From Bacteroidota bacterium (GTDB lineage Bacteria > Bacteroidota > Bacteroidia > AKYH767-A > OLB10): a stretch of DNA of 64,000 nt. Positions 10,547 to 64,000 of this stretch are shown piece by piece. The position numbers were made by a program, and so were the translations under genes. Under the pieces are notes generated by a model. That model was not told where the DNA came from, ran no database searches, and was given only the letters and a program-made list of their open reading frames with translations. The DNA is taken from contig JADKJB010000016.1 of assembly GCA_016722525.1 (NCBI GenBank), positions 25,277-89,276 on the forward strand. The letters run 5' to 3'. The first letter of the stretch is position 1. Every line of letters starts with the position of its first letter.

Positions 10547-10713
10547 GCGTGCGGCTTAGTATTTTTTTTGCCTTGAAATTATTGCGAAAGATCAGAACTT
10601 TTTTTGTTATACAATCACTAACCTCAATAATGTTTTCAACAACAATTTGTTAATGACGGATTTTGAACAGCTGAGATAAAAAAAGTTTATTTTATATTTT
10701 GTATCTTTGTGTC

Positions 10714-11916: not shown

Positions 11917-13121
11917 ATGAGGCTTTTCAAAAAGAGAATCCTTTTGGGAGTAACCGGTAGCATTGCCGCTTACAAGTCAGCTGAGTTAATACGTCTTTTC
12001 ATTAAGGAAGGCGCTGAAGTACAGGTTGTTATGACTAAATCGGCGCACGATTTTATTACCCCTCTCACATTAGGAACCCTTTCCAAAAAACCTGTTCTCA
12101 CCGAATTCAGTGAACCAGCATCAGGCACATGGAATAACCATGTGGAATTGGGTCTGTGGGCCGATGCCGTTGTTTTAGCACCCGTTACAGCCAATACCAT
12201 TGCCAAATTGGCAGCAGGACGTTGCGATGACTTACTCTCAGCCATTTATTATCAGCCAGATGCCCTGTTTTTATTGCTCCTGCCATGGATCTGGATATGT
12301 TTGCACATCCTTCAACAACGGAAAATATTTCCCAGCTGATTTCGTTTGGAAACAGGGTAATTGGTCCTGCATCAGGAGAATTGGCCAGCGGGCTAAAAGG
12401 TGCCGGACGGATGCTGGAACCAGATGAAATTTGCTCCTTTATGGTAAAGGCGTTGCATCCAAATCCAGAACTTATAGGCAAAAAAGTATTGATAAGTGCA
12501 GGTCCCACCCGGGAATCCATTGACCCGGTCAGATTCATTTCTAACCACTCATCCGGTAAAATGGGAGTGGCATTGGCTGAAGAATTTGCCCTCAGAGGTG
12601 CCTTGGTAACTCTTGTTGCTGGGCCGGGTGTTGTGATGCCAAAAAATGGAGCTATTAGTGTTTTACAGGTTGTTTCAGCCGATCAAATGCTTGTTCAATG
12701 TATAGCAGAATTTAAAAATTCAGACATTGCAATCATGGCTGCTGCAGTTGCCGATTACACACCAATTGCAGTTGCCGATCAAAAGTTAAAAAAGAAATCA
12801 GATCAGGTACATCTTGAACTTAAACCTACTGTAGACATTCTTGCCAGAATGGGCGAAATGAAAACTAAAAACCAGATATTGGTGGGCTTTGCTCTTGAAA
12901 CCGATAATGAAATTGTAAATGCAATTGGTAAATTAGAGCGTAAAAATTTAGATCTTGTAGTGTTAAATTCAATGCAAGACGCCGGAGCTGGCTTTAATTC
13001 TGATACCAATAAAATAACTATCATTGACAAAAATAAAAATGCTGTTCCTTATAGTCTAAAATCCAAAAAGGAAGTAGCTTCTGATATAGCCGATAAAATT
13101 ATTTCATGTTTCAGCAAATGA
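11917..13121 (+). CDS. coaBC: Bifunctional phosphopantothenoylcysteine decarboxylase / phosphopantothenate-cysteine ligase (one frameshift ~12290)
   Basis: N-terminal flavoprotein domain GVTGSIAAYKSAELIR. C-terminal CoaB domain SNHSSGKMG...AAAVADY. Confidence 0.9.
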
Positions 13122-46232: not shown

Positions 46233-46751
46233 ATGGCTTCTGTACAACAAAACTTATCTGTTTTTGACAAAAGCAATCTTCCTGATGCCAGTAAAATGCG
46301 TATCGGGATTGTTGTTGCTGAATGGAATGCAGCAATTACAGGCGCATTATATAAAGGAGCTTACGACACTTTAATCTCCTGCAGTGTAGAGGAATCAAAT
46401 ATTCATACCATTGATGTCCCAGGTACTTTTGAACTTACAGCAGGAGCAAAATTTTTAGCTTCTCAATCCAAGTTAGATGCTGTTATATGTTTAGGCTGTG
46501 TAATACAAGGAGAAACAAGGCACTTTGAATTCATTTGTCAAGCAGTGGCTCAGGGGTTAACTAACCTCACCATAATGGCATCCATCCCTTTTGTTTTTGG
46601 AGTGCTTACTACCGATAACCTCGAACAAGCTCAGTAAAGAGCCGGTGGCAAACATGGTAATAAAGGAATTGAAGCAGCTATTACTGCAATAAAAATGGCG
46701 GCTTTGAAAAACCAAAAAGCCAAAAAAGAAAAGAAAATCGGTTTTAATTGA
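46233..46751 (+). CDS. ribH: 6,7-dimethyl-8-ribityllumazine synthase (C-terminal frameshift ~46635)
   Basis: VPGTFELTAGAKFL, GCVIQGETRHFEFI. The tail RAGGKHGNKGIEAAITAIKMAAL... continues in another frame to the TGA at 46749-46751. Confidence 0.85.
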
Positions 46752-46863: not shown

Positions 46864-47298
46864 TTATTTCCTGCTTTTTTTCTTCTTCTTCTTAGCTTCT
46901 TTTTCTGCCATTTCTTCTTTCATAATATTCCAATAGGCACGGCCATAACTTACAAAAACTTCGGACCCTGCCTGAATATTACGAGTGGCGCGGATAAAGA
47001 CTTTTTTTCCTTTTTCATGATAAACCGCATTGTTACGATGCCCATTAACTCTACCCACACCTGCGGCATCATTGGCATATCGCCCAAAGGTTTCTTTAAA
47101 ATCAAATGCATCAATACAGGCATTTTTGTTAATATAATACACATATCCCCCTTTTCCAACATCATTTCTTTCAATAGCGTCAGCCCAGGTAATCAGTTCG
47201 CCTTCGTATTCACAAACATTTTTACCTTTTTTAATGTCCTTTTCAGTGAACAAACCTTTACCTGCTCCAGGCAATGTCGACTTTTTTACAAATACCAT
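46864..47298 (-). CDS. SET-domain protein-lysine methyltransferase-like protein
   Basis: GAGKGLFTEKDIKKGKNVCEYEGELI, YANDAAG...NNAVY, EVFVSYGRAYW, and a poly-Lys C-terminal tail. Confidence 0.78.
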   Translation of the reverse strand: MVFVKKSTLPGAGKGLFTEKDIKKGKNVCEYEGELITWADAIERNDVGKGGYVYYINKNACIDAFDFKETFGRYANDAAGVGRVNGHRNNAVYHEKGKKVFIRATRNIQAGSEVFVSYGRAYWNIMKEEMAEKEAKKKKKKSRK

Positions 47299-47611
47299 AT
47301 TTAATAAATTTCTTTTTTGAAGGGTGCAATATTACAGTATTGAAACGTCAAACACAAGACATTAAAAAAACGACTTACAAACAATTTTTGCTTCATCTAA
47401 AATAGAATTCTATACAAGCACAAAAAAAGTCGAAATCAAGCCTATTCTTCAAAAACTGCTTGAATGCACCTCTTCTGTTTTCGTTTTGTTAGTTCAGCTA
47501 TTCTATTGACTATTTGGAAGATCAATTTTTCTTATTCAGCTATAATTTATTTTATATTAAATAATTGGACTACATATTTGAAGTCCAAACCAACTTTAAA
47601 TAAATTCTAAA

Positions 47612-48461
47612 ATGAAAAACAAATTTCTAATCTTAACGCTTATTGTTGCTGCGGGTGCCCTCTCATGGGTCCAAAGTGATAATGGAAAAGCGGGCTACAC
47701 GGCTTCACCAGGTGAATCGTCGTGTAATGCATCAGGTTGCCATACAGGTAACACTATTAATGCGGCAGGTGGTTCTATAACTATCACAGCTCCAACAATG
47801 CCAGGCTGGCAATATAATTCCGGGCCAGGTTTATCCTATTAGCGTTACTATTGAAAGATCTGGCAAACCCCTGTTTGGGATCGGCTTCGAAGCATTAAGG
47901 AGTTCAGGTGCAAATGGAGGAACTTTAACTATAACCAATACGTCTCAAACGCAAATCAAATCTAAAACAATTAATGGGAATTCAAGAGCCAATGTTGTTC
48001 ACCAACAAAATGGTGGTGCATCGGCAAACTCCCATACATTCACATTTAACTGGACTGCACCAACAGCTTCAATCGGAAATGTCACATTCTATGCTTCGGG
48101 AAATGCTGCGAATGGCGATGGTAATGAATCAGGTGACTATATTTACAAAATAGCTCAGGTAGTCACTCCAATTACAACCGGACTTGAAAACCTGGAAGGA
48201 GTCGGTGCTACCATAAAGATATTTCCAAATCCTGTAGCAGACAAATTCACAGTTAATTTCTCACTCCCTGAAGCAGGGAATGTGCAAATGAATTTAATTT
48301 CCATGGAGGGGAAATTATGTTCCACTATCATGTCTGAAACTATGTCACCCGGACAGCATGAAATTAGCTATCAGGTGCCTGATCAGCTCAGAAAAGGAAA
48401 TTACCTGCTTCAAATCAAAAATGACAAAATAACTCAATACAGGAAGATCGCTCTGCTATAG
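47612..48461 (+). CDS. Secreted protein with a T9SS C-terminal sorting domain (one frameshift ~47820)
   Basis: Signal peptide and an N-terminal GESSCNASGCHTG motif. The long second frame (no start codon, so absent from the ORF track) ends in IKIFPNPVADKFTVNF...GNYLLQIKNDKITQYRKIALL, a Por_Secre_tail-type CTD. Confidence 0.7.
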
Positions 48462-48495
48462 GGTGTGGGGTATCTTAAGTGATTCTTTCTTTCAC

Positions 48496-48520
48496 CCGGG
48501 CCTGTAAGCCCGGTTTTTTT
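48496..48520 (+). terminator. Intrinsic terminator
   Basis: CCGGGC-ctgtaa-GCCCGG followed by T7. Confidence 0.75.
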
Positions 48521-48718
48521 ATAAAAAAATGTAAACAAAACCTGTTAAGAGACTGTTTAAGAATTCAGAAAACAACGATTTCAATTTAAATATTTAGAAA
48601 TCTATGTTTTTAAAAGATAAATTGATTGCCCAAAAAAGCAAAAAATTTATTCTTATTTAAACTTTATTATTTGTAACTTCGGGTTACTAAATTAAATCTG
48701 ATATTAAAAACCTTACTC

Positions 48719-49498
48719 ATGAAAAAATACATCCTTCTAGCCTTGCTATCCTCAATTGGCTTTACAGTACAATCTCAATCCCGATGGAATGTGGGGATTC
48801 AAACGGGTTGTGTTACCAACTTATCCAGATTCGATTCAGGAAATGAAGAAGCAAATGCCTTATTTAGCAACAACCCTTACAAATCGGCTCTGCTAGGTGT
48901 CAATTTCAGATATAAAATCAGTGACAAATTTTCATTTCAATCCGGATTTCACTTTACAGAATTCGGCTTCAGCTATGGAATGGCTAAAAACTACTCCTTG
49001 TTAAAACCGGAAAGCCGTTATTCAGATCTTTCTTCAAGCACATGCATTTCAAGTATTCCAGCATTAGTTGTTTTAAATACTCCTGTTAATTGTAATAATG
49101 TACGTTTCATTTTTGGAGCAGGGTTTGCAATTCGGGGAATTGATGATAAATGGGAAAGCGACAGCGAAGCTGAAATACCTGCTAACGAGGGAGCAAATGC
49201 CAAAACAACGTACATGAAGGCCCAATCCAAAACTGTAAATGGAGTTTCACCTGCCGCTACCTGGATAATAGGGTTTGAAAAAGTACTTTCAAGAGGAAAC
49301 ACTATGAGTTTTACCTTTCAGGGAACCCAAGGCTTCACTACAATAGCAGAATCAACCGTAAGTTATACTGCAGGCAATCAGGAGTATTCACATACGTTTA
49401 TTAATAGAGGCAGCTATGCAACTATGGCATTTGCTTACAATTTCAGTTCATTTGGAACTCGAAAAGCAAACAAATTGCTTAAAAATGCAATCAAGTAA
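48719..49498 (+). CDS. Outer-membrane beta-barrel (porin-family-like) protein
   Basis: Signal peptide MKKYILLALLSSIGFTVQSQ, alternating beta-strand pattern, aromatic-rich C-terminal strand (MAFAYNF). Confidence 0.5.
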   Translation: MKKYILLALLSSIGFTVQSQSRWNVGIQTGCVTNLSRFDSGNEEANALFSNNPYKSALLGVNFRYKISDKFSFQSGFHFTEFGFSYGMAKNYSLLKPESRYSDLSSSTCISSIPALVVLNTPVNCNNVRFIFGAGFAIRGIDDKWESDSEAEIPANEGANAKTTYMKAQSKTVNGVSPAATWIIGFEKVLSRGNTMSFTFQGTQGFTTIAESTVSYTAGNQEYSHTFINRGSYATMAFAYNFSSFGTRKANKLLKNAIK

Positions 49499-49525
49499 GA
49501 ATTAGTTTTTACTAATTATTAAAAA

Positions 49526-49561
49526 AGAGGAAGAACCAAAATAAATTTTGATTCTTCCTCT
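49526..49561 (+). terminator. Intrinsic terminator; last feature of the conserved region
   Basis: AGAGGAAGAA...TTCTTCCTCT stem followed by a T-rich tract. Confidence 0.6.
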
Positions 49562-49684
49562 TTCTGTTTCGATTCAATTTTTTTTTACACTTTTTATTCA
49601 TTTTGAACAGGGAACTTCCACCAAAGAGCATAAGAATGAAAAAGAGGCATTAATTGTACAAAGCTATGCCCTGTTATTCAAAAG

Positions 49685-49731
49685 TGATTCCGAAGCGACT
49701 CGAACGCTTGACCTTCTGCTTTTCAGGCAAT
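49685..49731 (-). other. 3' half of tRNA-Phe(GAA) (positions 27-73): att-like remnant
   Basis: Reverse complement reads ATTGC-CTGAAAA-GCAGA-AGGTC-AAGCG-TTCGAGT-CGCTT-CGGAATC-A. That is an anticodon arm, a 5-nt variable loop, a canonical T-arm, a 3' acceptor strand and a discriminator. No D-arm or 5' acceptor strand lies upstream. Confidence 0.75.
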
Positions 49732-49739
49732 CCACCAAA

Positions 49740-49934
49740 ATGGGAGTCAAAGGCACTTCACAGGCTTATATTCTTGGAAACGGTAGGAAGCACTTTAGAG
49801 TGCAATTTTGGGCTATGTTCTGCAGAATATTTAATATTGAAGCTGGGGTGTTGAATGGGGTGGATTTGAGGGAAACATTATTATTCCAAGAAAAAATACT
49901 AAAAACAGACGAATTGTCCGCATTTTTCATCTGA
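49740..49934 (+). CDS. Conserved small ORF (64 aa) in cassette leader A
   Basis: MGVKGTSQAYILGNGRKHFRVQFWAMFCRIFNIEAGVLNGVDLRETLLFQEKILKTDELSAFFI. Comparison with copy B shows coding-like substitutions (synonymous AGA/CGG and TTG/CTA). The stop is followed 14 nt later by a hairpin terminator. Confidence 0.45.
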   Translation: MGVKGTSQAYILGNGRKHFRVQFWAMFCRIFNIEAGVLNGVDLRETLLFQEKILKTDELSAFFI

Positions 49935-49948
49935 ATGCCATTTTGTCT

Positions 49949-49990
49949 CAGGGTTTACCCCTAGGGGGAAACCTGTGTTTTGTGATTTTT
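49949..49990 (+). terminator. Intrinsic terminator inside the leader (copies also at 54476-54517 and 60364-60405)
   Basis: CAGGGTTT(A)CCCC / GGGGAAACCTG stem followed by TGTTTTGTGATTTTTTG. It is conserved in all three leaders. Confidence 0.65.
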
Positions 49991-50081
49991 TGTAATAGTT
50001 ATGAATTTCATGTTTACAATTACATGTAGCTATTTTTCAATCAGCTAATTTCAGTTAAAATTAACCTTTAATCCGTGTAAT

Positions 50082-52009
50082 ATGAAAACAACTTATTCCA
50101 AATTAATCATGTTGGTTGCCTTTTTGATATTTTTTCAAATGGAAGGCTTCTCCCAAACATTAACTTTAACACCCTCCAACTTTAATGGTTATAATATCAG
50201 TTGCTTTGGTAGCGCAACAGGAAGTGTTAATCTGACTATTTCAGGAGGCACACCACCATACACTATTGAATGGAGTAATGCGGCCACCAGCGAGGATCTC
50301 AGTAATGTCCCTGCGGGCTATTATCGTGTCAGCGTTGATGATGCTGACACCTTAACAGAGGCCGTGGATGCAGAAATAACTTTAACAGAACCTGAGCCAC
50401 TCCAAATCGGGGAAGCCTATCCTTATGTTTATCAGAACGGTTACAATGTTAGCTCTTATGGAGCATGTAATGGAAGTATTATTCTTGATGTTAAAGGGGT
50501 GTTGCCCCATATACTTATTTATGGGAACCGGGTCAGCAAACTATTGCGAACCCGTCTAATTTATGCTCTAATGAAAATCAAGTAATTGTTACAGATGCAA
50601 ACGGCTGTGCTATTGCAAACGGAATAGGATTGAATGAACCTCAAAGAGATGACTGGACCATGAATGGAAATTACAATTCTGATCCTGCGACACAGTTTAT
50701 TGGTACAATAGATAATAAAGACGTCTCATTTCGGACAAATAATTTAGAGAGATTCAGAATAAAATCAGATGGCAAAATTTCAATGAGTACGTTCAGTGGT
50801 GCAGGATCTAAAATAGTGTATGCAGATAGTTTGGGAGTATTAAGATCATTTTCTTTTCTTTTATCTACTTGTTTGCCTCGGTCTCCAATTATCGCTTGGC
50901 AGGCGAATCCTGCAATTCAAAATAAAGTATTTGCATGTGGAATTGATTTTGGAATTGGAACATATAGCCCCAGAGAAAAACTGGAAGTAAAAGGAACCGT
51001 ATTAGTTACTTCATGGGATAATTCCCTAAATAATATGTCAGATTACCTCCAACTTAAACACGATGGTGTAAATGCACGAATAGAAAGCTTTGGTACAGGC
51101 GATTTATTGTTGAATAATGGAAATCCAAGAAATGTGAAAGTTAATTTGGGCAATGGGTCAGGATATTTTGAAACAGGAAATAATACATATTTGGCCACAG
51201 AAAGTGGAAATGTTGGAATTGGTATAAGTACACCTAATTACAAATTGGATGTAAATGGTAATATAAATTATACGGGAGAATTATATAAAAACGGAACATT
51301 AATATCAGATGCTTTTTGGTCTACTACCACTACCGGTATTAATTTTGGTTTAGGAAATGTGGGTGTAGGGACATCTAATCCTATAGAAAAATTTCAAGTC
51401 AATGAAGGAGCAATTTCTGCTGTAATTGGATCTGCAGAAGGTCAAGGCCTAGATTATGGAACATGCTATTTTGGAATGAACGCCATTCGAACAGGTATGA
51501 ATAGTTGGATAAGCTCAACTGATGGCATACATAACGGAGGTACAATACTTTTTGGAAGTATTAGCGGTGATTTTAATATTGCAACTATCCCGAGTTGTGA
51601 ACCCAATTGCAATACGGATTTAATTTACGATAACAACTTTATTCAAGACAATACTAGCTTTAAAATCAGAGCTTCAGACGGTCATATTTCTATGGGAGGA
51701 AACCCTCATAATGATTATAAACTAAATGTATGTGGAGGTATAATAACTAATAAAGTTAGAGTACCTGCAATCTGGTGTGATTATGTCTTTGAAAAAGGTT
51801 ATGAATTAATGTCAATTGATAATTTGAGGCAATTTGTAGAAACTAACAAACGTTTACCAGAAATACCATCACAGAAGGAGATTGAGAGCAATGGTGTGGA
51901 TGTCGGTTCTATGCTGACATTACATATGAAGAAAATCGAAGAATTAACTTTATATGTTCTTGAGTTAGAGAAAAGAATTAATGAGTTAAAAAATATATCA
52001 AATGAATAG
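50082..52009 (+). CDS. Secreted SprB-repeat / tail-fibre-like protein A1 (one frameshift in the G-run at 50496-50499)
   Basis: Signal peptide, two SprB-type repeats (NISCFGSATGSVNLTISGGTPPYTIEW and NVSSYGACNGSIILDVKGG.APYTYLW), fibre-like GNVGIG..NP..KL.V.G motifs, and a C-terminal WCDYVFEKGYELMSIDNLRQFVETNKRLPEIPS module with a coiled coil. Confidence 0.65.
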
Positions 52010-52637
52010 TCTGAAACTTAACTTTATTCCAATTTTTGTCATCTTTTTGTATTCTAGCCAAACTTACAGCCAAGACTCAACTTCATCAATAATAAATTCA
52101 AGTAAGTACAAAATATCAGCTAATGTTTCATTTGAAAGAAGCGGAACTGAAAGTTATGAAGCTCCTCGAGATTTCCAAATTGTAAATAATTTTGGAATCG
52201 CTATTAGTAAGAAAATTTCTAAGCGTTTTTGGATTGAATTTAATCCTCAGTTAATTAAACACAAAACTAAGATTTTCTTGGACTTATATGGGGATTATCT
52301 TGAGTATTCTTTTATATCGGATAATATTAGAATTCCAATTAATTTAGAAATGTATTTAAAATCTTTTTATTTTAAGGTTGGGCCATTTTGCGATTTCTTA
52401 ATAGATATAAGATCTGATTCAAATACTAATTTTAATGCTTATAATGTTAATGATTTTACTTATGGAATTGCTGCTGCCACTGGAATGGAGAATCGAATTT
52501 ATAAAAATCTTTATTTGTTTGTTGAAGTGAGATATAATCAAGTATTAAACACCTCCATTTACCCAAAAAATAATAAGAGTTATGAAGGTCGATTTGTTAA
52601 TTACGGGTTTAATATAGGTTTGTGTATTTATTTATAA
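52002..52637 (+). CDS. Small outer-membrane beta-barrel-like protein A2
   Basis: 211 aa with a signal peptide and an alternating-strand pattern ending NYGFNIGLCIYL. Its start overlaps the A1 stop by 8 nt. Confidence 0.45.
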   Translation: MNSLKLNFIPIFVIFLYSSQTYSQDSTSSIINSSKYKISANVSFERSGTESYEAPRDFQIVNNFGIAISKKISKRFWIEFNPQLIKHKTKIFLDLYGDYLEYSFISDNIRIPINLEMYLKSFYFKVGPFCDFLIDIRSDSNTNFNAYNVNDFTYGIAAATGMENRIYKNLYLFVEVRYNQVLNTSIYPKNNKSYEGRFVNYGFNIGLCIYL

Positions 52638-52648
52638 AAAAATCAAAT

Positions 52649-54135
52649 ATGAAAAAATGGATTTTTGTTTTATTAATTTTTGTGGCTGGTAAGCAAGGGT
52701 ATTCACAATGGAATCTTATTAGGAATTCTAGCTTTGAACATTTAATCCCAGGACAATCATTAAATAATAATTGCCTAGGGGTGTTACAGAAGATGTTTTA
52801 TTATGGAAACAGGCAAATGACAATCATGATTTTAAATTTGGAACACCAGATTATATGGATGAACAATGCAATGAAAAAGAACCAGGTATAATTTATTCAG
52901 GTGAATCTTCTAAATTTATTTATTTGGAGGTTCAACACGATGGTAATGGGACCCATCCTTCGCATAATGATAAAAATGATGCAATCCAAGCAGGTTTGAT
53001 TTCTACTCTATATCAAATCCATAACTATGTATTTAAAATCATGTATATTGGAGTGCCTCCCAAATATGGTTCAAATATTTCATATGGAGATACACGAATG
53101 AGAATGTGGCTGTCAAAATATAGCGAACATTGGAATAGTTCATGGGGGAATGTCATTTATTCTCGTGTTATGTATCCCCCTCATATGATTAATCCGCAAG
53201 AATGGATTGAACACACTCTTTTTATTGATGGTCCAAATGATGGTGCTAATTTTTCACAGCTTAAAAATTTAACAATAGGTGCAGAAGAAGGTCAATTTTA
53301 TGTTGAATCAGTTGAATTAAGTGAAATTTGTGCACCAATACATTATATCCAAGATCAACATTTCTTTAATGCTCAAGATGGAATTCCACATAAGGCAGCA
53401 AATGTGTTAATTGCAGGAAGTAATACAGGAGCCCCTCATCTTATCGGTGATGTGGTTATCCACCCAGGTGCAAATGTTACTTTTAAAGCGGGGATTGGAC
53501 CTTTTGATTTTATTGATATTTTAGGTGTTGATATACAGGCAGGTGCTAATTTTGAAACTTTTTTTGAACCTTGCGATAATTCTGTAGTAAGACAGGAATA
53601 TGACACCACAGAAGTTTTTCGAATGGATGATTCGATAGAATATATGGAGTGTGGTGACACTTTAATTATTAACGGTTTAGATGGTGATACAACCACGAAC
53701 ATAAATTATTTTTGGGATTTGGGTAATGGAGATACATTATCTTCACCTACAGTAAATTATATTTATCCAACAAGTGGAACATATTTAGTAACCCTTGTAC
53801 TTACTGATTCTCTAAATCATAAAGACACACTTTCCAAAACATACGTTGTGCCTTCTTGTAGGATTTCAGGATCTCAAATAATTGCAGAATATCAGCCTGA
53901 AATAAAAGTATTTCCAAATCCTTCAATCGGTTTAGTAAATATAAATTATACGCTGAAAGATAAAAATTATTTGTCTTATAGTGTATATGACCCAACTGGA
54001 CGGGTAATAATAAATAAATCAAGAGAATACTTTAGTGATTTTCAAATTCAATTGGCAGACGAAGGAGTATATTTCATAAAATTTGAATTTGAGGATAAAA
54101 GTATTTACTTCAAAAGGATTGTAATAACAAAATAA
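52649..54135 (+). CDS. Secreted PKD-domain protein with a T9SS sorting domain, A3 (one frameshift ~52770)
   Basis: Signal peptide MKKWIFVLLIFVAG, PKD motif YFWDLGNGDTLSSPTVNYIYPTSGTYLVTLVLTD, and CTD IKVFPNPSIGLVNINY...GVYFIKFEFEDKSIYFKRIVITK. Confidence 0.65.
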
Positions 54136-54245
54136 TTAATTAGGAATAGACCCCAAATACTGGATTCTGTAAGATCCTTAACATGAATCTACTACATAAA
54201 ATATCTCAGTTTTTTTGAGATATAGACGTGATCAGTATGAGAGAA

Positions 54246-54608
54246 CTTTTCAGGCAGACCACCAGAATGGGGATCAAAGGCAAATCACAGGCATTTTTGC
54301 AAGAGAATGGTAGGAAACATTGTATTTTGCTATATCTAACTATGTTTAGCCGGATATTTAACATTGAACCTGGGATGCTAATAGGGGTTGATTTGCGGGA
54401 GATTTTTTAATCCCAAGAAAAAATACTAAAAACAAACAAATTGTCCGCATTTTTCATCTGAATACCATTTTGTCTCAGGGTTTCCCCTTAGAGGGAAACC
54501 TGTGTTTTGTGATTTTTTGTAATAGTTATGCATTTCATGTTTACAATTACATGTAGCTATTTTTCAATCAGCTAATTTCAGTTAAAATTAACCTTTAATC
54601 CGTGTAAT
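54246..54608 (+). repeat. Cassette leader, copy B
   Basis: Collinear with 49719-50081 without indels. It lacks the T-arm/acceptor part of the tRNA remnant; homology starts at CTTTTCAGGCA, the anticodon-loop sequence. Confidence 0.85.
54267..54461 (+). pseudogene. Small leader ORF, copy B, with an in-frame TAA at 54408-54410
   Basis: MGIKGKSQAFLQENGRKHCILLYLTMFSRIFNIEPGMLIGVDLREIF(stop)SQEKILKTNKLSAFFI. Same length and frame as copies A and C. Confidence 0.4.
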
Positions 54609-56325
54609 ATGAAAACAACTTATTCCAAATTAATCATGTTGGTTGCCTTTTTGATATTTTTTCAAATGGAAGGCTTCTCCCAAACATTAACTTTAACACC
54701 CTCCAACTTTAATGGTTATAATATCAGTTGCTTTGGTAGCGCAACAGGAAGTGTAAATCTGACTATTTCAGGAGGCACACCACCATACACTTTCGAGTGG
54801 AGTAATGCGGCCACCACTGAAGATCTTACCAATGTCCCTGCGGGCTATTATCGTGTCAGCGTTGATGATGCTGATACTTTGACATCCATTGTCGAAGCCG
54901 AAATCACGCTAACACAACCGGAACCACTTGAGATCGGAGAGGTTCAGCCGTACGTATATCCAAACAATTATAATGTTAGCCAGTTTGGTGCTTGCCATGG
55001 TACTATCCAAATCAATGTTTCAGGTGGAGTTGTTCCCTATGACTATGCTTGGAGTCCAGGACAACAAACGGTTTCTAATCCAACTAATTTGTGTTCCCCG
55101 CCAAAACACAGTGTTGCTAACCGATGCCATCGGATGTAAGACCTCTGCAAGTGTGCTTTTAAGTGAGCCGGAGCGCGACGACTGGATTATGAATGGTAAT
55201 TTCAGTTCTAATCCCGCCACACAATTTATTGGCACCAGAGACAGCGTGAAACTACTTTTCAAAACCAACAATCAGGAGCGCATGAGTATTGCTGCAGATG
55301 GGCAGTTTAGGATTAACAAACTGGGTGGCACGGGATCTCGTTCGTTGATGGTTGATTCACTAGGGAAGTTGATTGCAGCTCCTGCTCTTAGTTGGATGAC
55401 AAATGGTAATTTTCTCGGTGGTAATGAGTTTATCGGATCCACCAATAGTAAAGATCTGGTTTTTAAAACTTCCGGCATGACAAGAATGAAAATAAAATCA
55501 AATGGCAAAATATCAATATCAGAATTTGAAACTACTGCTAATGGAATTCTTTACACCGACTACTTAGGAGAAATTTGGAAACTTGATTTTGACCCATCAC
55601 AACCAGCATTATTCTTAGATGCTTCAGGAAATTTCACAGCATTACCAACAGGTAGCAATGCCTGGAGTTTGAGTGGACAAACCGTTTACAACCTGCATTC
55701 AGGAAATACAGGAATTGGAATAGCGAACCCTGCTTACAAATTTCATGTTGTGCATGATCCGGGAACTTCTTCAAGTGGAGGAATTATAGTGGAAAGCAAT
55801 AATGCGAACAATGCCAATAGTGAAATTAAGTTTAAGCATGCGGGAAATGATCAATGGTCAATAGGGAGTAATGTTCAACACAACTCTACAAGAAACTTTT
55901 TCATTTATGATAATTCCATTTCACCGGTGGGCGAGACTCGTTTTTATATTGATGGTGATGGACGGATTGGCATTGGTGTGATCCCACCCACAACTTGGCC
56001 TTCACAGAGTGCAGAGTATCGATTGTATGTTGAAGGAGGCATAATGACCCGTGATGTTAAAGTTACTGCCCAAAATCCCTTTCCAGATTATGTGTTCGAA
56101 GGTGACTATGATTTAATGACCATTACAGAGTACGGTAATTACTTAAAAAAACACAAGCATTTACCCGGCATTCCAACAGCTGCCGAAATTGAGGAGCAAA
56201 AAGGATTTGAAGTAGGTGATATGCAAGTAAAACTCCTCGAAAAAGTAGAGGAACAAGCACTATACATTGTGGACTTGCAGTGGCAATTAAATGAAATAAA
56301 GGCTCAACTTAACATCAAAAAATAG
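54609..56325 (+). CDS. SprB-repeat / tail-fibre-like protein B1 (one frameshift; C4 run at 55096-55099 versus C3 in copy C)
   Basis: Same architecture as A1. The C-terminal module is FPDYVFEGDYDLMTITEYGNYLKKHKHLPGIPTAAEIEEQKGFEVGDMQVKLLEKVEEQALYIVDLQWQLNEIKAQL. Confidence 0.65.
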
Positions 56326-56330
56326 TAGCT

Positions 56331-58538
56331 ATGAAAACATACATACTTTTAAGTGTTTTGTGTATCTTTATACTAAATACGCAAGGCCAAACACCACCTC
56401 AAGGTTTTGTGACTCTGAAGGGCAGACAGTTTTATGATGGAAATGGATTGCCGTTTTATCCGTTGTTGATGAATTATTCTCTAGAATATCAACATGATAA
56501 TGCACAAAATGGTACACATTGGCTTAATAAATCATGGGAATATGGAACAGATGATGATGGTTTGAGACTAATAATTTTTGGCAGCTCAAATTGAAATCAT
56601 GAATGATTTGCATCAAATAAAATTGATGGGATTTAATATGGTCCGGCCTGATTTTACTGCGGAGTGGGATACTGATGTAAATCAGTTTTATTTAAAAGGT
56701 CGAACATACGGAATCCAAACAACCCGGCAGATCCGAATAACCATTCCAGTCAAGAAAGGAGAATTTGGTTTGATCAACCATCATTGGCAACAGACCCTAA
56801 TTTCATTGAGTATTTATATTATTTAGATTGGTTTATATCAATGGCTGGCAATGAGAACATGTACACTATGCTTAATGGTGCATTAGGGGACGTTTCAGAT
56901 CCACTGGCATATAATAGATATTTGGAATTTCTGGATTTGTTAGGAAAAAGATTCAAGGATAACAAGTGGTTGGCATTTTACGATATTTTAAACGAACCAT
57001 TATATAAATATAAATATGCGCATGCTGATGGAGATATAAATTTTTATACTAAAAAGCAAGCATGTGAATTGGTTGAAGATTTTTATAATGCCCTTAAAAA
57101 TCCAAATGCAGACCCCAACCACCTCGTTTCTGGCGGAAATTTAGTTACAGAAGATGTCATTTTGTTTGACCCTTCTTTAATGAAACTGGATTTTAGTCAA
57201 CCACACCTATATTCTGAAAAATTTATTTCATACGATGGCATGAACCTGACTAACAAGATTAACAGAGTGAATGGAAGCACATATTGGGTCTACAAAAACA
57301 TACCAATGCCATGGATAAACGGCGAAACCGGTTTTCCTTCATCGGATGTATTTCCAATAGGAGTTAATCTCGTTGCAGGAACAAATCAGGACCAAAAAAC
57401 TTATGCTGATAATATTCTTTCCTCCACACGTGATCATGGAGGAAGTGGATTTACATGGTGGAATTTCCAGGATGGAGCATGGGAAGAATATGGAACCGAA
57501 ATATTTGGATATGGTTTATTAATCTTAGAATCAGGAATTGATAAACCTGCAGTGAATTCATTTCAAAGCTATCTTGATCCATCAACAAACCAACCTCCCC
57601 AATGAGTACAATCGTTCCCAGTGAACCACCTAATTTCCAGGGATCCTTATGTGAACAAATTGTACAATCCAAATGAAACAGGAGCTGTTACAGGCACAGT
57701 TTTAGATGAAAACGGAAACGGAATTGAGAATGCCTGGATTGTGGCAAAGAATTATTTAAAAATAAACCAAACTACTAGTTATGCTGATTGTAGTTGGATT
57801 TACACCTATACAAAAATAATGGCAATTTTAAATTGATACCATTTAATAATGAACCAACAAATGATCACAGAATCACTTATTTAATAGGTTCTGCAATGGG
57901 AGTTGAAAGCTTTCACTCGGGTATAAATGATGGGACTCAGATGGCAAACCCTCCTCCTTTCACACTTAAGCAAAATAAATTTGAATACGATGCGATTGTT
58001 GAATCTGATGTACCCATTTCAGAAGAGATAAATTTTAAAGGCTGGAATTCTCTTACCATGAATAATTCAAAACTGGAAGGAATTTCAACATTAAATGCAA
58101 GAGAAGTCATTAATTTACATGATGGTTTTCATGCAACGCAAACAAGCGAAGTGCATATCTTTCCTGCCGAAACATTTGCAGTTTGTAACGATTACACTGA
58201 TTATACGATTCATTTTGCAACGTGAATCTCAAACCAATCATTCAAATTCAAATATTGTAGACACAAAAAATATTGAGATAAAATTTTCAAAGGCCAAAAT
58301 TTCAATTTTTATTCAACCGAATCCTACCACTGGTTGTGTTACTGTAAAATTAACAAATGATGAAAATCTTGACAACAAAAAATTGATAGTAAGAAACATG
58401 ATTGGTGAAAATTTGAAAGAAATTATTTTCATTGGAAATGAAACCGTATTTAATTTAACAAATTTACCCAAAGGAATTTATTTAATTGAAATGAATTCGG
58501 ACCAAAAACAACTTATTAGCAAACTAATTTTAAACTAA
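56331..58538 (+). CDS. GH5-like (clan GH-A) glycoside hydrolase with a CarboxypepD_reg-like domain and a T9SS sorting domain, B2 (about 5 frameshifts)
   Basis: Six collinear ORF fragments. Motifs GFNMVRP, YDILNEP (acid/base NEP), WINGETGFP (nucleophile). CTD IFIQPNPTTGCVTVKL...GIYLIEMNSDQKQLISKLILN. Confidence 0.6.
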
Positions 58539-58543
58539 TCAAA

Positions 58544-59971
58544 ATGAAAAAAATAATTCAAATAGTTATGGCACTATGTCTATTGCCTTTATTTTCGCTA
58601 TCACAATGGCAATGGGGCAAACAATTTGGTGGAAATTCATTTAATGCTCCTCATGATGTACCTTTAAGTCTTTTAACTGATGGTAATAATTCATTTACAA
58701 TTGGATTTTATGGCGGCCCCTTACACATGCCCGATGACACATTGCCCTCAAATGGAATTAATCAAATATTTATTACAAAATTTAATACATCTGGCACCCA
58801 AATATGGGCTCAATCATTAGGTGGTAACTATAATCAATTTCTGGATTATGAATACGGTGAAGGAGTTATTGATAATAATTCGAATTCAATATTTCTTACA
58901 GGCATTGTAATAGGCGATGTTTCGTTTGGTGGAATTACTTCTTATAGCAGTTCCGGACTTGGAGATATTTTTTTAACAAAAATGGATTTGAATGGAAACT
59001 ATGTTTGGGTTGATCGAATAATAACATCAGGGAAGATCTATCCAAAATATTTATCAGTCCTTTGGAAAATATATCTCATCACTCAAACGGAAGATTCTTC
59101 TCAATTTGGAAATTTTAATTTGCCACCCGAGGTGGGAATAATACAATATGATACTGCAGGAAATTGTTTGTCTGCTGAGTATTATACACCTTCACAGCAA
59201 CCCAGTTTAATAATAAAATATGTAAGATTTATTAGAAAGTGACATATTTTATTTTGGAAGATTTCAAACCACTTCTTTCCAACTTGACACCTTCAACCTA
59301 ACAAACCTCGGCACCTCCGATGCCTTTCTTGCCCGGGCCGATTCTAATGGAAATGTTAAATGGGTAAAGCAATTTGGTAATGCAGGAGCCGATTACATTG
59401 AAGATATGGCCATCAGTAATAATTATCTGTATGCCATCGGTGGCTTTCAGGATTCCATTAATTTTGGCGGAACTTCTTTGTTCAACAATGGAAAAGATGT
59501 ATTTATACAAAGTTTGACACTTCAGGTAACACCATTTGGGCACGCAACTTATTTTGCACCGGTGCCACAAGTTCAGGCAACAAAATAGTGGTCGATAATG
59601 ATGGCAACACATATGTTACTGGTTCCTTTTCAGGAACAGCCTCGTTTGGTAATTTTCAACTCACTACCACCAACCCATCCGATATGTTCCTTGCCAGATA
59701 CGATTCGGCAGGAAACTGCCTGGGAGTGAAAAATTTCGGGCATGCCAGCGGAAATTGTCTGGCAACCGATAGCAACGGAGATGTGGTTGTAGCAGGAACA
59801 TTTAACAATACCGTTACCATTGGTTCCAACACCTTAACCAGCTATGGCGGCAGATTGGAAATGAATGATGGAACTATCAAAGTTGAATTAGAGGCTCAGG
59901 CGAAGGGTGTTTATAGTATTACTCTGGGGAATGGGAAGAGGGTGTTTTCTGGGAAGATGGTTATTGAATGA
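58544..59971 (+). CDS. SBBP-type beta-propeller repeat protein B3 with a truncated sorting domain (about 3 frameshifts)
   Basis: Signal peptide. Repeats of the type DIFLTKMDLNGNYVW, DAFLARADSNGNVKWVKQFG, DMFLARYDSAGNCLGVKNFG. Only the distal half of a CTD remains (GVYSITLGNGKRVFSGKMVIE). Confidence 0.6.
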
Positions 59972-60099
59972 TGTCATATTGTTTAAAAAGCATAATAATC
60001 AGGATGAATTTACAATCAAAAACACTACTTGTTTAAACCATTGATTATACCAAGCTAAAAAAATAATTGAAAATGGTTGTCACTATTTGAAAATAAAAG

Positions 60100-60146
60100 T
60101 GATTCCGAAGCGACTCGAACGCTTGACCTTCTGCTTTTCAGGCAAT
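60100..60146 (-). other. Second copy of the tRNA-Phe(GAA) 3' half remnant
   Basis: Identical 47-nt sequence to 49685-49731, in the same orientation. Confidence 0.75.
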
Positions 60147-60154
60147 CCACCAAA

Positions 60155-60349
60155 ATGGGAGTCAAAGGCACTTCACAGGCTTATATCCTTGGAAACGGTA
60201 GGAAGCATTTTAGAGTGCAAATTTGGGCGATGTTCTGCAGAATATTTAATATTGAAGCTGGGGTGTTGAATGGGGTGGATTTGAGGGAAATATTATTATT
60301 CCAAGAAAAAATACTAAAAACAGACGAATTGTCCGCATTTTTCATCTGA
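60155..60349 (+). CDS. Conserved small ORF (64 aa), copy C
   Basis: Differs from copy A at a handful of positions and keeps the same stop and terminator. Confidence 0.45.
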   Translation: MGVKGTSQAYILGNGRKHFRVQIWAMFCRIFNIEAGVLNGVDLREILLFQEKILKTDELSAFFI

Positions 60350-60496
60350 ATGCCATTTTGTCTCAGGGTTTACCCTTAGAGGGAAACCTGTGTTTTGTGA
60401 TCTTTTGTAATAGTTATGCATTTCATGTTTACAATTACATGTAGCTATTTTTCAATCAGCTAATTTCAGTTAAAATTAACCTTTAATCCGTGTAAT

Positions 60497-62209
60497 ATGA
60501 AAACAACTTATTCCAAATTAATTATGTTGGGTGCCATTTTGATATTGTTTCAAATGGAAGGATTCACACAAACATTAACTTTAACACCCTCCAACTTTAA
60601 TGGTTATAATATCAGTTGCTTTGGTAGCGCAACGGGAAGTGTAAATCTGACTATTTCAGGAGGCACACCACCATACACTATTGAATGGAGTAATGCGGCC
60701 ACCAGCGAAGATCTCAGTAATGTACCTGCGGGCTATTATCGTGTCAGCGTTGATGATGCTGATACTTTGACATCCATTGTCGAAGCCGAAATCACGCTAA
60801 CACAACCTGAACCACTTGAGATCGGAGAGGTTCAGCCGTACGTATATCCAAACAATTATAATGTTAGCCAGTTTGGTGCTTGCAATGGAACTATCCAAAT
60901 CAATGTTTCAGGTGGAGTTGTTCCCTATGACTATGCTTGGAGTCCAGGACAACAAACGGTTTCTAATCCAACTAATTTGTGTTCCCGCCAAAACACAGTG
61001 TTGCTAACCGATGCCAACGGATGTATGACCTCTGCAAGTGTGCTTTTAAGTGAGCCGGAGCGCGACGACTGGATTATGAATGGTAATTTCAGTTCTAATC
61101 CCGCCACACAATTTATTGGCACCAGAGACAGCGTGAAACTGCTTTTTAAAACCAACAATCAGGAGCGCATGAGTATTGCTGCAGATGGGCAGTTTAGGAT
61201 TAACAAACTGGGTGGCAGGATCTCGTGCGTTGATGGTTGATTCACTTGGGAAGTTGATTGCAGCGCCTTCTCTTAGCTGGATGACAAATGGTAATTTTCT
61301 CGGTGGTAATGAGTTTATCGGATCAACCAATAGTAAAGATCTGGTTTTTAAAACTTCCGGCCTGACAAGAATGAAATTAAAATCAAATGGTAAAATTTCA
61401 ATATCAGAATTTGAAACTACTGCTAATGGAATTCTTTACACCGACTACTTAGGAGAAATTTGGAAACTTGATTTTGACCCATCACAACCAGCATTATTCT
61501 TAGATGCTTCAGGAAATTTCACAGCATTACCAACAGGTAGCAATGCCTGGAGTTTGAGTGGACAAACTGTTTACAACCTGCATTCAGGAAATACAGGAAT
61601 TGGAATAGCGAACCCTGCTTACAAATTTCATGTTGTGCATGATCCAGGAACTTCTTCAAGTGGAGGAGTTATAGTGGAAAGCAATAATGCGAACAATGCC
61701 AATAGTGAAATTAAGTTTAAGCATGCGGGAAATGATCAATGGTCAATAGGGAGTAATGTTCAACACAATACACAATGAAACTTTTTCATTTATGATAATT
61801 CCATTTCACCGGTGGGCGAGAACCGTTTTTATATTGATGGTGAAGGACGGATTGGGATTGGTGCGATCCCACCCACAACTTGGCTTCACAGAGTGCAGAG
61901 TACCGATTGTATGTTGAAGGTGGCATAATGACCCGTGATGTTAAAGTTACCGCTCAAAATCCCTTTCCAGATTATGTGTTCGAAGGTGACTATGATTTAA
62001 TGACCATTACAGAGTACGGCAATTACTTTGAAAAACACAAACACTTGCCCGGCATTCCAACAGCAGCAGAAATTGAAGAGCAACAAGGATTTGAAGTAGG
62101 TGATATGCAGATAAAGCTACTTGAAAAAGTTGAGGAACAAGCAAGGTATATTGTAGATTTACAACGGCAATTAAATGAAATAAAGGCTCAACTTAACATC
62201 AAAAAATAG
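60497..62209 (+). CDS. SprB-repeat / tail-fibre-like protein C1 (2-nt deletion ~61217, in-frame TGA at 61776-61778, 1-nt deletion ~61893); possibly a true pseudogene
   Basis: Collinear and highly similar to B1 over its whole length. The lesions were identified by direct comparison with B1. Confidence 0.6.
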
Positions 62210-62214
62210 TAGCT

Positions 62215-64000
62215 ATGAAAACATACATACTTTTAAGTGTTTTGTGTATCTTTATACTAAATACGCAAGGACAAACACCACCTCAAGGCTATGTGACTCT
62301 GAAGGGCAGACAGTTTTATGATGGAAATGGAAATCCGTTTTATCCGTTGATGATGAATTATGAAATGGAATATCAGTATGACAATAGTTTTACCAATCAC
62401 TGGTTGAATAAATACTGGGAATATGGTATAGAAAATGATGGATTTGAAAATACTAATTCTATTGATGCTGAGAATGAAATAATTTCAGATCTTACTATTA
62501 TAAGAAATATAGGATTCAATATGGTAAGACCTGAATTTACACCGAAATGGGATCCAGTTTTGAAAGAATTTTATTTACGAGGTCGTACATATGGTGATCC
62601 GTCAGTTCAATATAACCTAGATAGTGACGATGCCAGAACCTATTTTGATCAACCTTATGCAACGAATCAAGCTGTTTTAGAATATTTTACATATATGGAC
62701 TGGTTCATTGATCAGGCAGGACAAAATAATATGTACACCATGTTGAATGGTGTTTTAGGTGATGTTACCGATCCTGATGCATTTATTCCTTATAAAGAAT
62801 ATCTTGACTTATTAGGCAAACATTTTAAATTTAATACTTGGCTCGCGTTTTATGATATTATAAATGAACCACAATATGTATATAATTATGCCTATTCAAC
62901 ACCTCAATATAGTAAAATGCAAGCATGTGAATTGGTTGCTGAATATTACGATGCCTTAAAAGATGACAATGCAGATCCAAATCATCTCGTCTCGGGAGGG
63001 AATTTGGTCACTGAAGATGTTACTTTGTTTGACCCTTCATTATTAAAATTAGATTTTAGTCAGCCACATTTATATTCTGAAAGTTATACTACTTATGATA
63101 ATTGCAACTTAACAAATAAAATTAATAGAATAAAAGGAAGTACCTACTGGTTTTCAAAAAATATTCCAATGCCATGGATAAATGGCGAAACAGGATTTCC
63201 TTCTTCTGATGACCCGCAATATCCCAAATGTAATGATTTAGTTTGTTTAGTTGCCGGATCAAATGCCGATCAACAATCCTATGCGGAACAAATTTTACAA
63301 AATACACGAGATAGCAAAGGCAGCGGTTTTGTATGGTGGGTTTTTCAGGATGGAGCCTGGCCCGATCATGGAAATGCGCTTAATGGGTATGGATTGTTGA
63401 CCCTTGAAACTGGAGCGCCCAAACAAGCTGTAACCACTTTTGCAAATTATTTGGACCCAAATAATAATTATCAGCCTCCTCCTGCAAGTGCTACCTTGCC
63501 AGCAGAACCAGATAACTATAGGGACCCATATGTTAACAAACAATTCAACCCAAATGAAATTGGAGCCGTTACTGGAAGAGTCTTGGATGAGACCGGAAAC
63601 GGAGTTGATAATGCTTGGGTAACAGCAAAAAATTATTTGTACGTTGATTATAGTCTTCCACAACCTGAAATTGTTTGTTCATGGATAAATACGTATACAG
63701 ATCCAGATGGGTATTTTAAAATTATTCCATTGAACACTACAGATTTCATGGATCCATAGAATCACCTTATATAAGAGGTTCAGCAATGGGGCAGAAAGTT
63801 TTCATGCAGGAATTAATGATGGTACACAAATGGTAAACCCGTCTGATGTCACGCTTAAAAATATTAAATTTGAATATGATGCTTTTGAGGAAGTAGCTGT
63901 TGCAATTTTAGACCAGAGAAATTTTAAAGGTTGGAATTCTTTAACAATAGCAACTCAAAATTGGAAGGAGAATCACAATTAAATGCCAGAGAGAAATTAA
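62215..64000 (+). CDS. GH5-like glycoside hydrolase paralogue C2 (intact for 514 codons, frameshift ~63755, continues past the window end)
   Basis: Motifs GFNMVRPEF, YDIINEP, WINGETGFP and GAVTGRVLDETGNGVDNAW. The first ~125 nt are near-identical to B2, then the sequences diverge. Confidence 0.65.

Follow-up and report, generated by a model that had tools for sequence, protein, structure and literature searches.

What kind of element is the repeated block at the right-hand end of a 64,000-nucleotide (nt) stretch of Bacteroidota bacterium DNA (assembly GCA_016722525.1, contig JADKJB010000016.1), the whole of which is called the window here? In this block of 14.3 kb an upstream segment of about 0.4 kb recurs ahead of genes for fibre-like proteins with SprB repeats and for secreted partners. 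A sequence-only reading had described three cassettes, each with a leader, a small open reading frame (ORF), a fibre gene and partner genes, and had offered two explanations: accretion of related islands at a tRNA-Phe gene, or a cassette family that varies surface fibres by recombination. The block is probably a tandem array of three paralogous operons of a chromosomal Bacteroidota family, duplicated and then reworked by patchwork recombination, each operon encoding a module of a surface fibre and partners of the type IX secretion system (T9SS).

As had been described, the upstream segment occurs three times in direct orientation, at 49681-50081 (A), 54246-54608 (B) and 60096-60496 (C). Copies A and C are 97.8% identical over 401 nt and copies A and B 85.6% over 363 nt, and no fourth copy was found within the 64-kb window. 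The genes that follow are on the same strand and tightly packed, with junctions of -8, 11, 5, 5 and 5 nt, in agreement with the gaps first noted. The plan of a cassette is a leader, one fibre gene of 571-642 codons, and partner genes. The partners are a 211-amino-acid (aa) protein and a PKD and Por_Secre_tail protein in cassette A, a GH5-like protein with Por_Secre_tail and an SBBP-like protein in cassette B, and, within the window, a GH5-like protein in cassette C; this content agrees with what had been read from the letters. The genes of the block are the following.

50082-52009, forward strand: fibre gene A, 642 codons after restoring 1 nt near 50497/50498; its pieces are ORFs 50082-50585 and 50630-52009.
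52002-52637, forward strand: gene for the 211-aa protein, with a signal peptide; overlaps fibre gene A by 8 nt.
52649-54135, forward strand: gene for a protein with a PKD domain (E 1.9e-12) and a T9SS type-A C-terminal domain (CTD; Por_Secre_tail E 3.8e-9, TIGR04183).
54609-56325, forward strand: fibre gene B, 571 codons after removing an extra C at 55096.
56331-58538, forward strand: GH5-like T9SS partner B, with the CTD at its 3' end (Por_Secre_tail E 1.6e-10).
58544-59971, forward strand: SBBP beta-propeller-like T9SS partner B, with NF047494 SBBP matches.
60497-62209, forward strand: fibre gene C, 571 codons, with an in-frame TGA at 61776-61778 and frameshifts at 61218 and 61884; resembles A in its upstream part and B from about codon 90 on.
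62215-64000, forward strand: GH5-like T9SS partner C, which runs off the window.

A three-way alignment showed that the "small ORF" (167-247 codons) and the "fibre" ORF form one reading frame in all three cassettes, broken at a different site in each copy; in fibre gene C, 2 nt are missing at 61218, a TGA stands at 61776 and 1 nt is missing at 61884. The repaired fibre proteins have 642 (A), 571 (B) and 571 (C) residues. A separate small gene was thereby ruled out: what had been taken for one is the fibre gene's 5' part, detached by a frameshift, and the small ORF as a component of the cassettes is an artefact of these breaks. In metagenome-assembled genomes (MAGs) rich in frame disruptions, a small ORF followed by a large one should be read first as one frameshifted gene.

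At least 13 frame disruptions were found in the 14.3-kb block, 7 of them in the partner genes of cassette B, where tblastn followed the GH5-like protein through frames 0>1>0>2>0 (at least 4 frameshifts and 1 in-frame stop) and the SBBP protein through frames 2>0>2 (2 frameshifts). The PKD gene is frameshifted near 52770-52780 (at about 52775), and the open frame of GH5-like C is 514 codons long and ends at 63759, its homology to B carrying on in another frame and past the window edge. Any enrichment of disruptions in the block relative to the left 49.7 kb is only qualitative. Housekeeping genes of the window are broken as well. The coaBC gene is split (11917-12339 and 12285-13121), its Flavoprotein domain stopping at profile position 86 of 162 and its DFP domain lying in another frame, and ribH (46233-46637) has an in-frame TAA at 46635-46637 within the conserved EQA..RAG stretch. 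This suggests either many indel and substitution errors in the consensus or a decaying genome, and because such genes are affected too, the broken frames of the block cannot be taken at face value as biology. They may reflect residual indel errors or strain heterogeneity of the MAG, real decay, or both.

Does the block then consist mostly of dead DNA, a pseudogene array in decay and without current function, or is it an assembly product of a locus that varies between strains, where reads were mis-assembled or the consensus is wrong? The density of disruptions and the origin of the contig in a MAG speak for this, and the B partner genes, which carry 7 of the disruptions, are not high-identity repeats within the window. 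However, coaBC and ribH point to a consensus that is error-prone in general, homologues in other assemblies are intact with the same operon layout, and tandem copies also occur in another locus, L031 (loci found in our searches carry L numbers). The copies in the window have moreover diverged (60-98%) and have unique partner genes as neighbours, which makes a trivial duplication by the assembler unlikely. On balance we regard this explanation as quite unlikely.

The history of the array was read from the distribution of identity among its copies, for which the leader has to be divided into a distal and a proximal part.

49681-49823, forward strand: distal leader A, about 140 nt, specific to this genome; the C copy is 96-98% identical and the B copy strongly diverged.
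49824-50081, forward strand: proximal leader A, 257 nt, a conserved non-coding region upstream of the fibre gene.
54246-54608, forward strand: leader B; its distal part, including a tRNA-like piece, is decayed and has a 17-nt gap, and in the proximal part it shares 98-100% identity with A and C.
60096-60496, forward strand: leader C, 97.8% identical to leader A; includes pseudo-tRNA copy C.

No simple tree accounts for the way identity is distributed among A, B and C. In the distal leader, sliding identity is 96-98% between A and C and 52-67% between B and C, and A equals C at 72 of the 76 informative sites in 49681-49880. Further on, A equals B at 9 of 19 sites in 50082-50330, 8 of them consecutive (50108-50219, the signal-peptide region), and B equals C at 126 of 130 sites in 50331-50700, a pattern that begins at about 50348. 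Judged by these sites, cassette C is a recombinant with A-like and B-like parts. Cassettes B and C are 97-100% identical in a tract made up of the proximal leader, the fibre gene and some 125 nt at the start of the gene after it, and beyond that tract their identity in this following gene drops to 60-76%. The near-identity of B and C over about 2 kb claimed at first sight was thus borne out for the fibre gene and the start of the next gene but not for the distal leader, and the homology itself spans the whole cassette (54246-58104 against 60134-63992). End-to-end homology of B and C fits tandem duplication, and the mosaic identity suggests that an old tandem duplication came first and gene conversion or recombination later. 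On the simplest reading, the whole B/C cassette would have been duplicated long ago, as dated by the partner genes at about 60-76%, and the leader and fibre tracts would have been homogenised recently.

An abrupt change at 49,681 had also been claimed. It is not seen in composition, the G+C content being 0.28-0.41 within the block and 0.35-0.39 to its left, and a frameshifted T9SS-CTD gene of about 300 aa (47612-48530), with a hypothetical gene, already adjoins the block on its left. The left flank likely ends in a terminator, a near-perfect 19-nt palindrome at 49524-49563, just past the gene at 48719-49498 and about 120 nt before the tRNA-like piece. A 144-aa SET-domain protein (PF00856, E 1.6e-15) is encoded at 46864-47298 on the reverse strand, just left of the block.

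Homologous operons are widespread. A scan of GTDB species genomes, with a narrower fibre alignment as query, gave 421 confirmed fibre loci in many Bacteroidota orders; carriers include Flavobacteriales, Chitinophagaceae (Niastella), Saprospiraceae, Prolixibacteraceae, Cyclobacteriaceae and Tenacibaculum. ORFs were called in 92 loci, with home-made hidden Markov models for the fibre C-terminus and the CTD, and the dominant order was a fibre gene, a CTD protein of about 730-830 aa and a CTD protein of about 540-555 aa. By BLAST, the GH5-like protein of the window is homologous to the first partner in 44 loci and its SBBP protein to the second partner in 33-35, which identifies cassette B as the canonical operon. 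A GH5-like gene lies directly downstream of 32 of 72 non-redundant fibre genes, and an SBBP-like gene comes next after the GH5-like gene in 27 of 29 loci. By gene content, cassette C begins as a canonical operon and cassette A is a variant. The operon occupies differing genomic contexts across organisms, and tandem copies were found in L031, L075, L064 and L052. A literature search found no description of the fibre, GH5-like and SBBP operon organisation and no family member that had been studied, in keeping with the earlier remark that this is not a described system. By homology, the three copies in the window are members of a widespread, conserved and apparently unstudied Bacteroidota operon family.

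The partner proteins are linked to the T9SS by their type-A CTD (Por_Secre_tail or TIGR04183), which is present in the window at 52771-54135 and 58095-58538 and in the homologous partners. Por_Secre_tail genes immediately follow the fibre gene in L002, L005, L007/8 and L009; in L002 six of them stand in a row, 1-12 nt apart, and in L009 a protein of 815 aa with Cellulase, CarboxypepD_reg and Por_Secre_tail domains overlaps the fibre stop codon by 4 nt. Pfam searches of intact partner homologues gave PF00150, CarboxypepD_reg and Por_Secre_tail for the first partner and weak SBBP matches with Por_Secre_tail for the second. The assignment to GH5 comes from homologues in L009 and L014, which match PF00150 Cellulase with 33 and 30 bits, above its cut-off of 23.5. 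As to a glycosidase domain, the window's own GH5-like copy gave only an Apiosidase-like Pfam match, at 16.8 bits and so below the cut-off of 26.5. The motifs INEP and NGETGF (NEP and GETG) were seen by eye in the translation of GH5-like C. The 211-aa protein of cassette A may be an outer-membrane beta-barrel; it had no Pfam or NCBIfam match and no homologue in the related loci.

Other partners were seen in related loci. At L011:3897-10214 (also L010:9979-13917) a fibre gene with the leader and 5' handle of the window is followed by a gene for a 2105-aa SpvB / FG-GAP / TcdB_toxin_midN / RHS protein, and this by a 180-aa ORF and a small Por_Secre_tail protein. Going by these domain matches, a fibre can evidently pair with a polymorphic-toxin-like partner. 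Three tandem genes for CTD proteins of about 507 aa, 94-96% identical, lie at L007:17033-21467, and a tandem duplication of 1.4 kb, 99% identical, at L048:11520-14567.

The sole Pfam match in the fibre protein was the SprB repeat PF13573 (fibre A, E 2.7e-12; fibre B, two repeats, E 2.7e-20), and the scores of 46.5 and 72.1 bits passed the gathering cut-off of 28. NCBIfam gave no match, and neither the type-A CTD nor CHU_C or the type-B CTD (PF13585 / TIGR04131) was found in the fibre proteins with Pfam or NCBIfam. A search of 5.8 billion proteins returned 324 relatives, all from Bacteroidota MAGs or metagenomes and at best 54% identical; those that bear names are called "SprB repeat-containing protein" or "hypothetical protein", and all close homologues carry PF13573. 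From N- to C-terminus, the family alignment contains a signal peptide, 2 to 6 SprB repeats, a conserved neck, an indel-rich middle and a conserved C-terminal domain of about 100 residues; the window fibre has the signal peptide and two SprB (Ig-like) repeats. The neck has the motif EPERDDW...GN...FIGT.DNKDL.FKTNN.ER, and the hypervariable beta-rich shaft carries G.VGIGT..P...L.V motifs. The consensus of the C-terminal domain is YKLYV.GGI..RDVKVT...FPDYVF...Y.LMS..EL..FI..NKHLPG.PSA.EV...G.E.G.....LL.K.EEQ.LYII.LQ.

Structure prediction of the fibre had been proposed as a check. An AlphaFold model of the B protein minus its SprB repeats reached a pLDDT of 68, and its best PDB matches by Foldseek were the beta-helix domains of the Bdellovibrio proteins Bd3182, Bd1334 and Bd2439 (8onc, 8ojn, 8onb), the top match being 8onc_B (Bd3182; E 2.9e-5, probability 1.0, TM-score on the target 0.51). 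In sequence, phmmer gave a weak match to the same Bdellovibrio protein (8ojn_C, E 0.032) through GT.D..L.F.TNN..RM.I and G.VGIGT..P, and fibre A had weak PHROG tail-fibre matches. With moderate confidence, the shaft is predicted to have the beta-helix fold of mosaic adhesive trimer (MAT) and S74-type fibres.

Modelled alone, the C-terminal domain reached a pLDDT of 86 and a pTM of 0.71, and consists of two short helices and a 36-residue terminal helix. No counterpart was found in the PDB by fold (Foldseek), nor by profile, where no chain fell below E 0.25, and none of 65 short relatives, some of them stand-alone proteins of about 154 aa, had a Pfam annotation. Neither Pfam and NCBIfam nor fold or profile comparison supported an S74 chaperone (PF13884) or a T9SS CTD, and both identities were rejected. 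In BFVD the domain matched two uncharacterised viral proteins (A0A5J6VKV2 and A0A6J5S1T8), of which one, labelled "Megaviridae environmental", has 719 aa (E 8.5e-4) and the other, from Caudovirales, 503 aa (E 0.06). The domain also occurs as stand-alone proteins of about 90-165 aa in cultured Bacteroidota, namely Fulvivirga, Imperialibacter and Rasiella (P0142, P0153, P0180 and others), none with a Pfam annotation and one mislabelled "bZIP transcription factor". Conserved and lacking a counterpart in Pfam, NCBIfam and the PDB, it is a candidate for a new domain definition.

The proximal leader is the part of the upstream segment that is shared across species. Its identity to L010:7860-8115 is 79%; the adjacent coding sequence reaches 72-73% and third codon positions 59%, which argues for purifying selection on the proximal leader. 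This part presumably holds the promoter and the 5' untranslated region. The distal leader is not homologous to the L010 leader (53% identity); in L010, a short-read assembly, the upstream neighbour of the leader is a divergent UbiA gene. The proximal leader contains a hairpin.

49951-49974, 54478-54501 and 60366-60389, forward strand: G+C-rich hairpin with a U-rich tract behind it, resembling a terminator or attenuator, about 110 nt before the start codon.

The hairpin and U tract are also conserved in L010. A 12-codon upstream ORF (MFTITCSYFSIS) lies between the hairpin and the fibre start at 50010-50048, 54537-54575 and 60425-60463; L010 keeps the ATG of this ORF, and a 1-nt deletion there alters the rest of the peptide. 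Rfam gave no family at E<=1 within 47000-64000, the folding energy of the leader was unremarkable (z-scores -0.01 and -0.14), and no covariation was seen (RNAalifold term +1.06), in a comparison of four sequences that has low power. An ORF across the leader (49548-49934) was judged non-coding, with A-B substitutions per codon position of 13/14/20, no family match and a stop in B. Leader homology in the wider family was limited to L010-L013 in nhmmer searches, alignments with L001 and L002 being empty; the leader pattern had no match in JGI metagenomes and a leader 26-mer none in GTDB genomes. Fibre genes generally have a long gap upstream: the median is 261 nt, and that of other genes 31 nt, a contrast that is inflated by the intra-operon genes in the control. 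At L002:9489-9714 the leader holds a 126-nt tandem repeat.

The left edge of the repeat carries a tRNA-like piece, on which the idea of island accretion at a tRNA-Phe had been based.

49685-49742, reverse strand: pseudo-tRNA copy A, 58 nt, with an anticodon arm (loop GAA), T arm and 3' acceptor strand and no D arm.
60100-60157, reverse strand: pseudo-tRNA copy C, within leader C.

Copy A scored 19.2 bits against the Rfam tRNA gathering score of 29 (E 0.24 in a 501-nt search), and ARAGORN called no tRNA there, the sole tRNA of the window being a tRNA-Lys at 355-428. A metagenome search with the T arm and acceptor strand found six loci (L093-L098), all of them intact tRNA-Arg(TCT) genes. The last 30 nt of the fragment match these exactly and, after one mismatch, 6 more nt match; the main difference is three consecutive bases of the anticodon loop. 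This 3' match marks the fragment as a remnant derived from tRNA-Arg(UCU), and together with the missing D arm it rules out a tRNA-Phe; the supposed tRNA-Phe gene is not present at the block.

A more general form of the island explanation was considered, in which islets integrated serially at a tRNA or were amplified there, the fragment is an attachment-site (att) repeat, and an intact tRNA and an integrase lie to the right of the window or act in trans. At most 5 nt separate the fragment's 3' end from the point at which A-C homology starts on the left, the fragment recurs at C, and a decayed copy starts B. Its orientation would fit an intact tRNA to the right on the minus strand, the last gene of each cassette ends about 110-125 nt before the next tRNA-like fragment, and the variety of genomic contexts of the operon also speaks for this explanation. 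The position of the fragment at the repeat edge is what an attachment-site remnant would look like, and it is not explained away. However, scans of the block's ORFs with Pfam and NCBIfam gave no integrase, recombinase or phage gene, as the first inspection had also concluded for recombinases, and no G+C shift occurs across the block. The fragment resembles tRNA-Arg, not tRNA-Phe, and its anticodon loop is altered; the homologous leader of L010 lacks the fragment, and a search of viral contigs gave no match to it. In 60 related loci there were no more than five tRNA genes and one tmRNA gene, none of them tRNA-Phe and none consistently beside a fibre gene, and the Pfam gene tables for the contexts of L001-L013 contain no recombinase or integrase family. 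The end-to-end homology of B and C, diverged partners included, is moreover what tandem duplication predicts. Island accretion at a tRNA-Phe is thus left without positive evidence, and integration or amplification at some other tRNA is unlikely as the source of the array; an att-derived origin would be compatible with later tandem duplication through att-like repeats.

Traces of recombination are not confined to the window. The loci L002 and L005 have different contexts in one metagenome and share a 940-nt handle (284 nt of leader and 656 nt of coding sequence) that is 95.8% identical; L006, which comes from a different sample, is the same as L002 as far as the handle (9717-10656) extends and the same as L005 from the start of the handle on. 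L006 is either a natural recombinant or a chimeric metagenome contig. Between L001 and L007 the flanks are 95% identical, and the fibre bodies and downstream genes differ after an 869-nt handle (86%); L007 has an extra gene upstream relative to L001. Fibre-gene 3' ends are shared between paralogues in L031, L035/L044 and L051/L060. These comparisons suggest that, as a family trait, the fibre genes have conserved ends around a variable middle and undergo exchange by way of those ends.

The second proposal of the sequence-only reading, that the cassettes serve to vary fibres through the 5' handle, stands in so far as the mosaic of A, B and C and the comparisons L002/L005/L006 and L001/L007 bear marks of recombination, and is not supported where a dedicated system is concerned, given the full leaders and the missing recombinase. 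A programme of phase or antigenic variation, by recombination among the cassettes or by inversion of a leader, could appeal to the sharp breakpoints of the A/B/C mosaic, to the conserved 5' handle with a variable shaft, to the chimeric and allelic exchanges in relatives and to an AT-rich 16-nt inverted repeat (14 of 16 positions complementary) that encloses 215 nt including the start codon in A and B. But all three copies carry a full leader, a start codon and a signal peptide, which argues against silent cassettes, and there is no layout of an expression site with silent copies. The block has no recombinase or invertase and no inverted repeat of at least 40 nt, and its frameshift sites are not long homopolymer or repeat tracts. 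The 16-nt repeat is of low complexity, broken in C and, by eye, poorly matched in L010. Its arms lie at 49890-49905 and 50121-50136 in A and at 54417-54432 and 54648-54663 in B, and it is probably a chance occurrence in AT-rich sequence. Programmed variation is accordingly very unlikely.

The proposed course of events for the array of duplicated and recombined operons is as follows. The array would have arisen by tandem duplication of a unit that already bore the pseudo-tRNA remnant at its upstream edge. Gene conversion or homologous recombination would then have homogenised the leader and 5' coding region in all three copies, the distal leader in A and C only, and the fibre body in B and C. 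The Sec-exported fibre may trimerise and be displayed on the cell surface beside a T9SS-attached enzyme and propeller, the three together acting as a module for glycan recognition and adhesion, and several operons with different shafts could confer different specificities. The 5' handle (the 257-nt leader, signal peptide and SprB repeats) and the 3' domain could serve as anchors for swapping shafts and partners between loci and strains, and the 257-nt leader with its hairpin and U tract would be a selected regulatory region.

A surface-fibre function with T9SS-attached enzymes is suggested by domain content, fold similarity and gene order, and several points weigh against this picture. The function of the fibre family is wholly inferred, no studied member being known from the literature search. 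The fibre has no recognisable T9SS CTD, its structure model is of moderate confidence and describes a single chain, not a trimer, and the window's own GH5-like copy lies below the Pfam threshold for GH5. The constraint on the leader rests on a single cross-species comparison, and L006 may be a chimeric assembly, not a recombinant. Plain duplication does not predict a pseudo-tRNA exactly at the edge of the repeat, and the frequency of disruptions could mean that the block is non-functional in this genome.

A broader proposal joins these elements, and we put it forward tentatively, judging it possible but rather less than even in its chances. The operon would encode an undescribed T9SS-linked surface apparatus of the Bacteroidota in which shafts and enzyme partners are exchanged at the 5' leader/SprB and 3' helical anchors, as a counterpart of tail-fibre swapping in phages and tailocins and of MAT diversification. 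A leader of about 257 nt with an attenuator-like hairpin would drive it, and the C-terminal domain would be a new module for fibre assembly or anchoring that some viral proteins have as well. How environmental Bacteroidota attach to particles, polysaccharides and other cells depends on their T9SS cargo and surface adhesins; to judge by its locus tags, this MAG may itself stem from activated sludge. If the proposal is true, three genes, for a phage-like fibre, a GH5-type enzyme and a beta-propeller, would form a widespread, conserved and so far unstudied module. Surface recognition in the Bacteroidota could then be approached from a new side, and the module would be a natural case in which specificity is exchanged piece by piece by way of conserved recombination anchors.

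Among known systems, islands that target tRNA genes, as they are generally known, share with the block a partial tRNA 3' end that is directly repeated at cassette boundaries. Unlike them, the block has no integrase, compositional shift or intact tRNA in view, its repeat extends hundreds of nt past the tRNA piece, and its cassettes are paralogous to a chromosomal operon family. The opa and pilE/pilS genes of Neisseria, again as generally known, resemble it in their conserved 5' regions, variable bodies and patchwork identity between paralogues; unlike them, the window shows no silent cassettes, recombination signals or enzymes, and each copy is a complete operon with its own leader.

The PKD, GH5-like and SBBP-like partners end in a type-A CTD, like T9SS type-A cargo in general, whereas the fibre itself lacks one. 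SprB of Flavobacterium johnsoniae (sprCDBF operon) is likewise a Bacteroidota surface protein with PF13573 repeats and T9SS-linked neighbour genes. It is far larger, has many repeats and has a type-B CTD that requires SprF, whereas the fibres of the window have 571-642 aa and two repeats, without CHU_C or a type-B CTD and without a SprF/PorP-like neighbour.

MAT proteins are described as trimeric adhesins on the cell surface that are related to S74 fibres of phages; their N-terminal domain is conserved and their tips can be swapped (PMC10769870). Like the MAT proteins of Bdellovibrio bacteriovorus and S74-type phage fibres (the L-shaped tail fibre of T5, the K1F endosialidase), the window fibre begins with a signal peptide and a conserved N-terminal module. 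Unlike them, it lacks the S74 chaperone-protease domain (no Pfam match and no profile match to PDB S74 chains), its N-terminal module consists of SprB repeats, it varies in the middle and ends in a conserved helical domain without a PDB match, and its gene, in another phylum, the Bacteroidota, stands in an operon with T9SS cargo. It shares with the MAT fibres a beta-helix shaft, here predicted, with a G.VGIGT..P-type motif and matches to 8onc, 8ojn and 8onb, and, like them, it belongs to a family of paralogues that diversifies by swapping domains or shafts.

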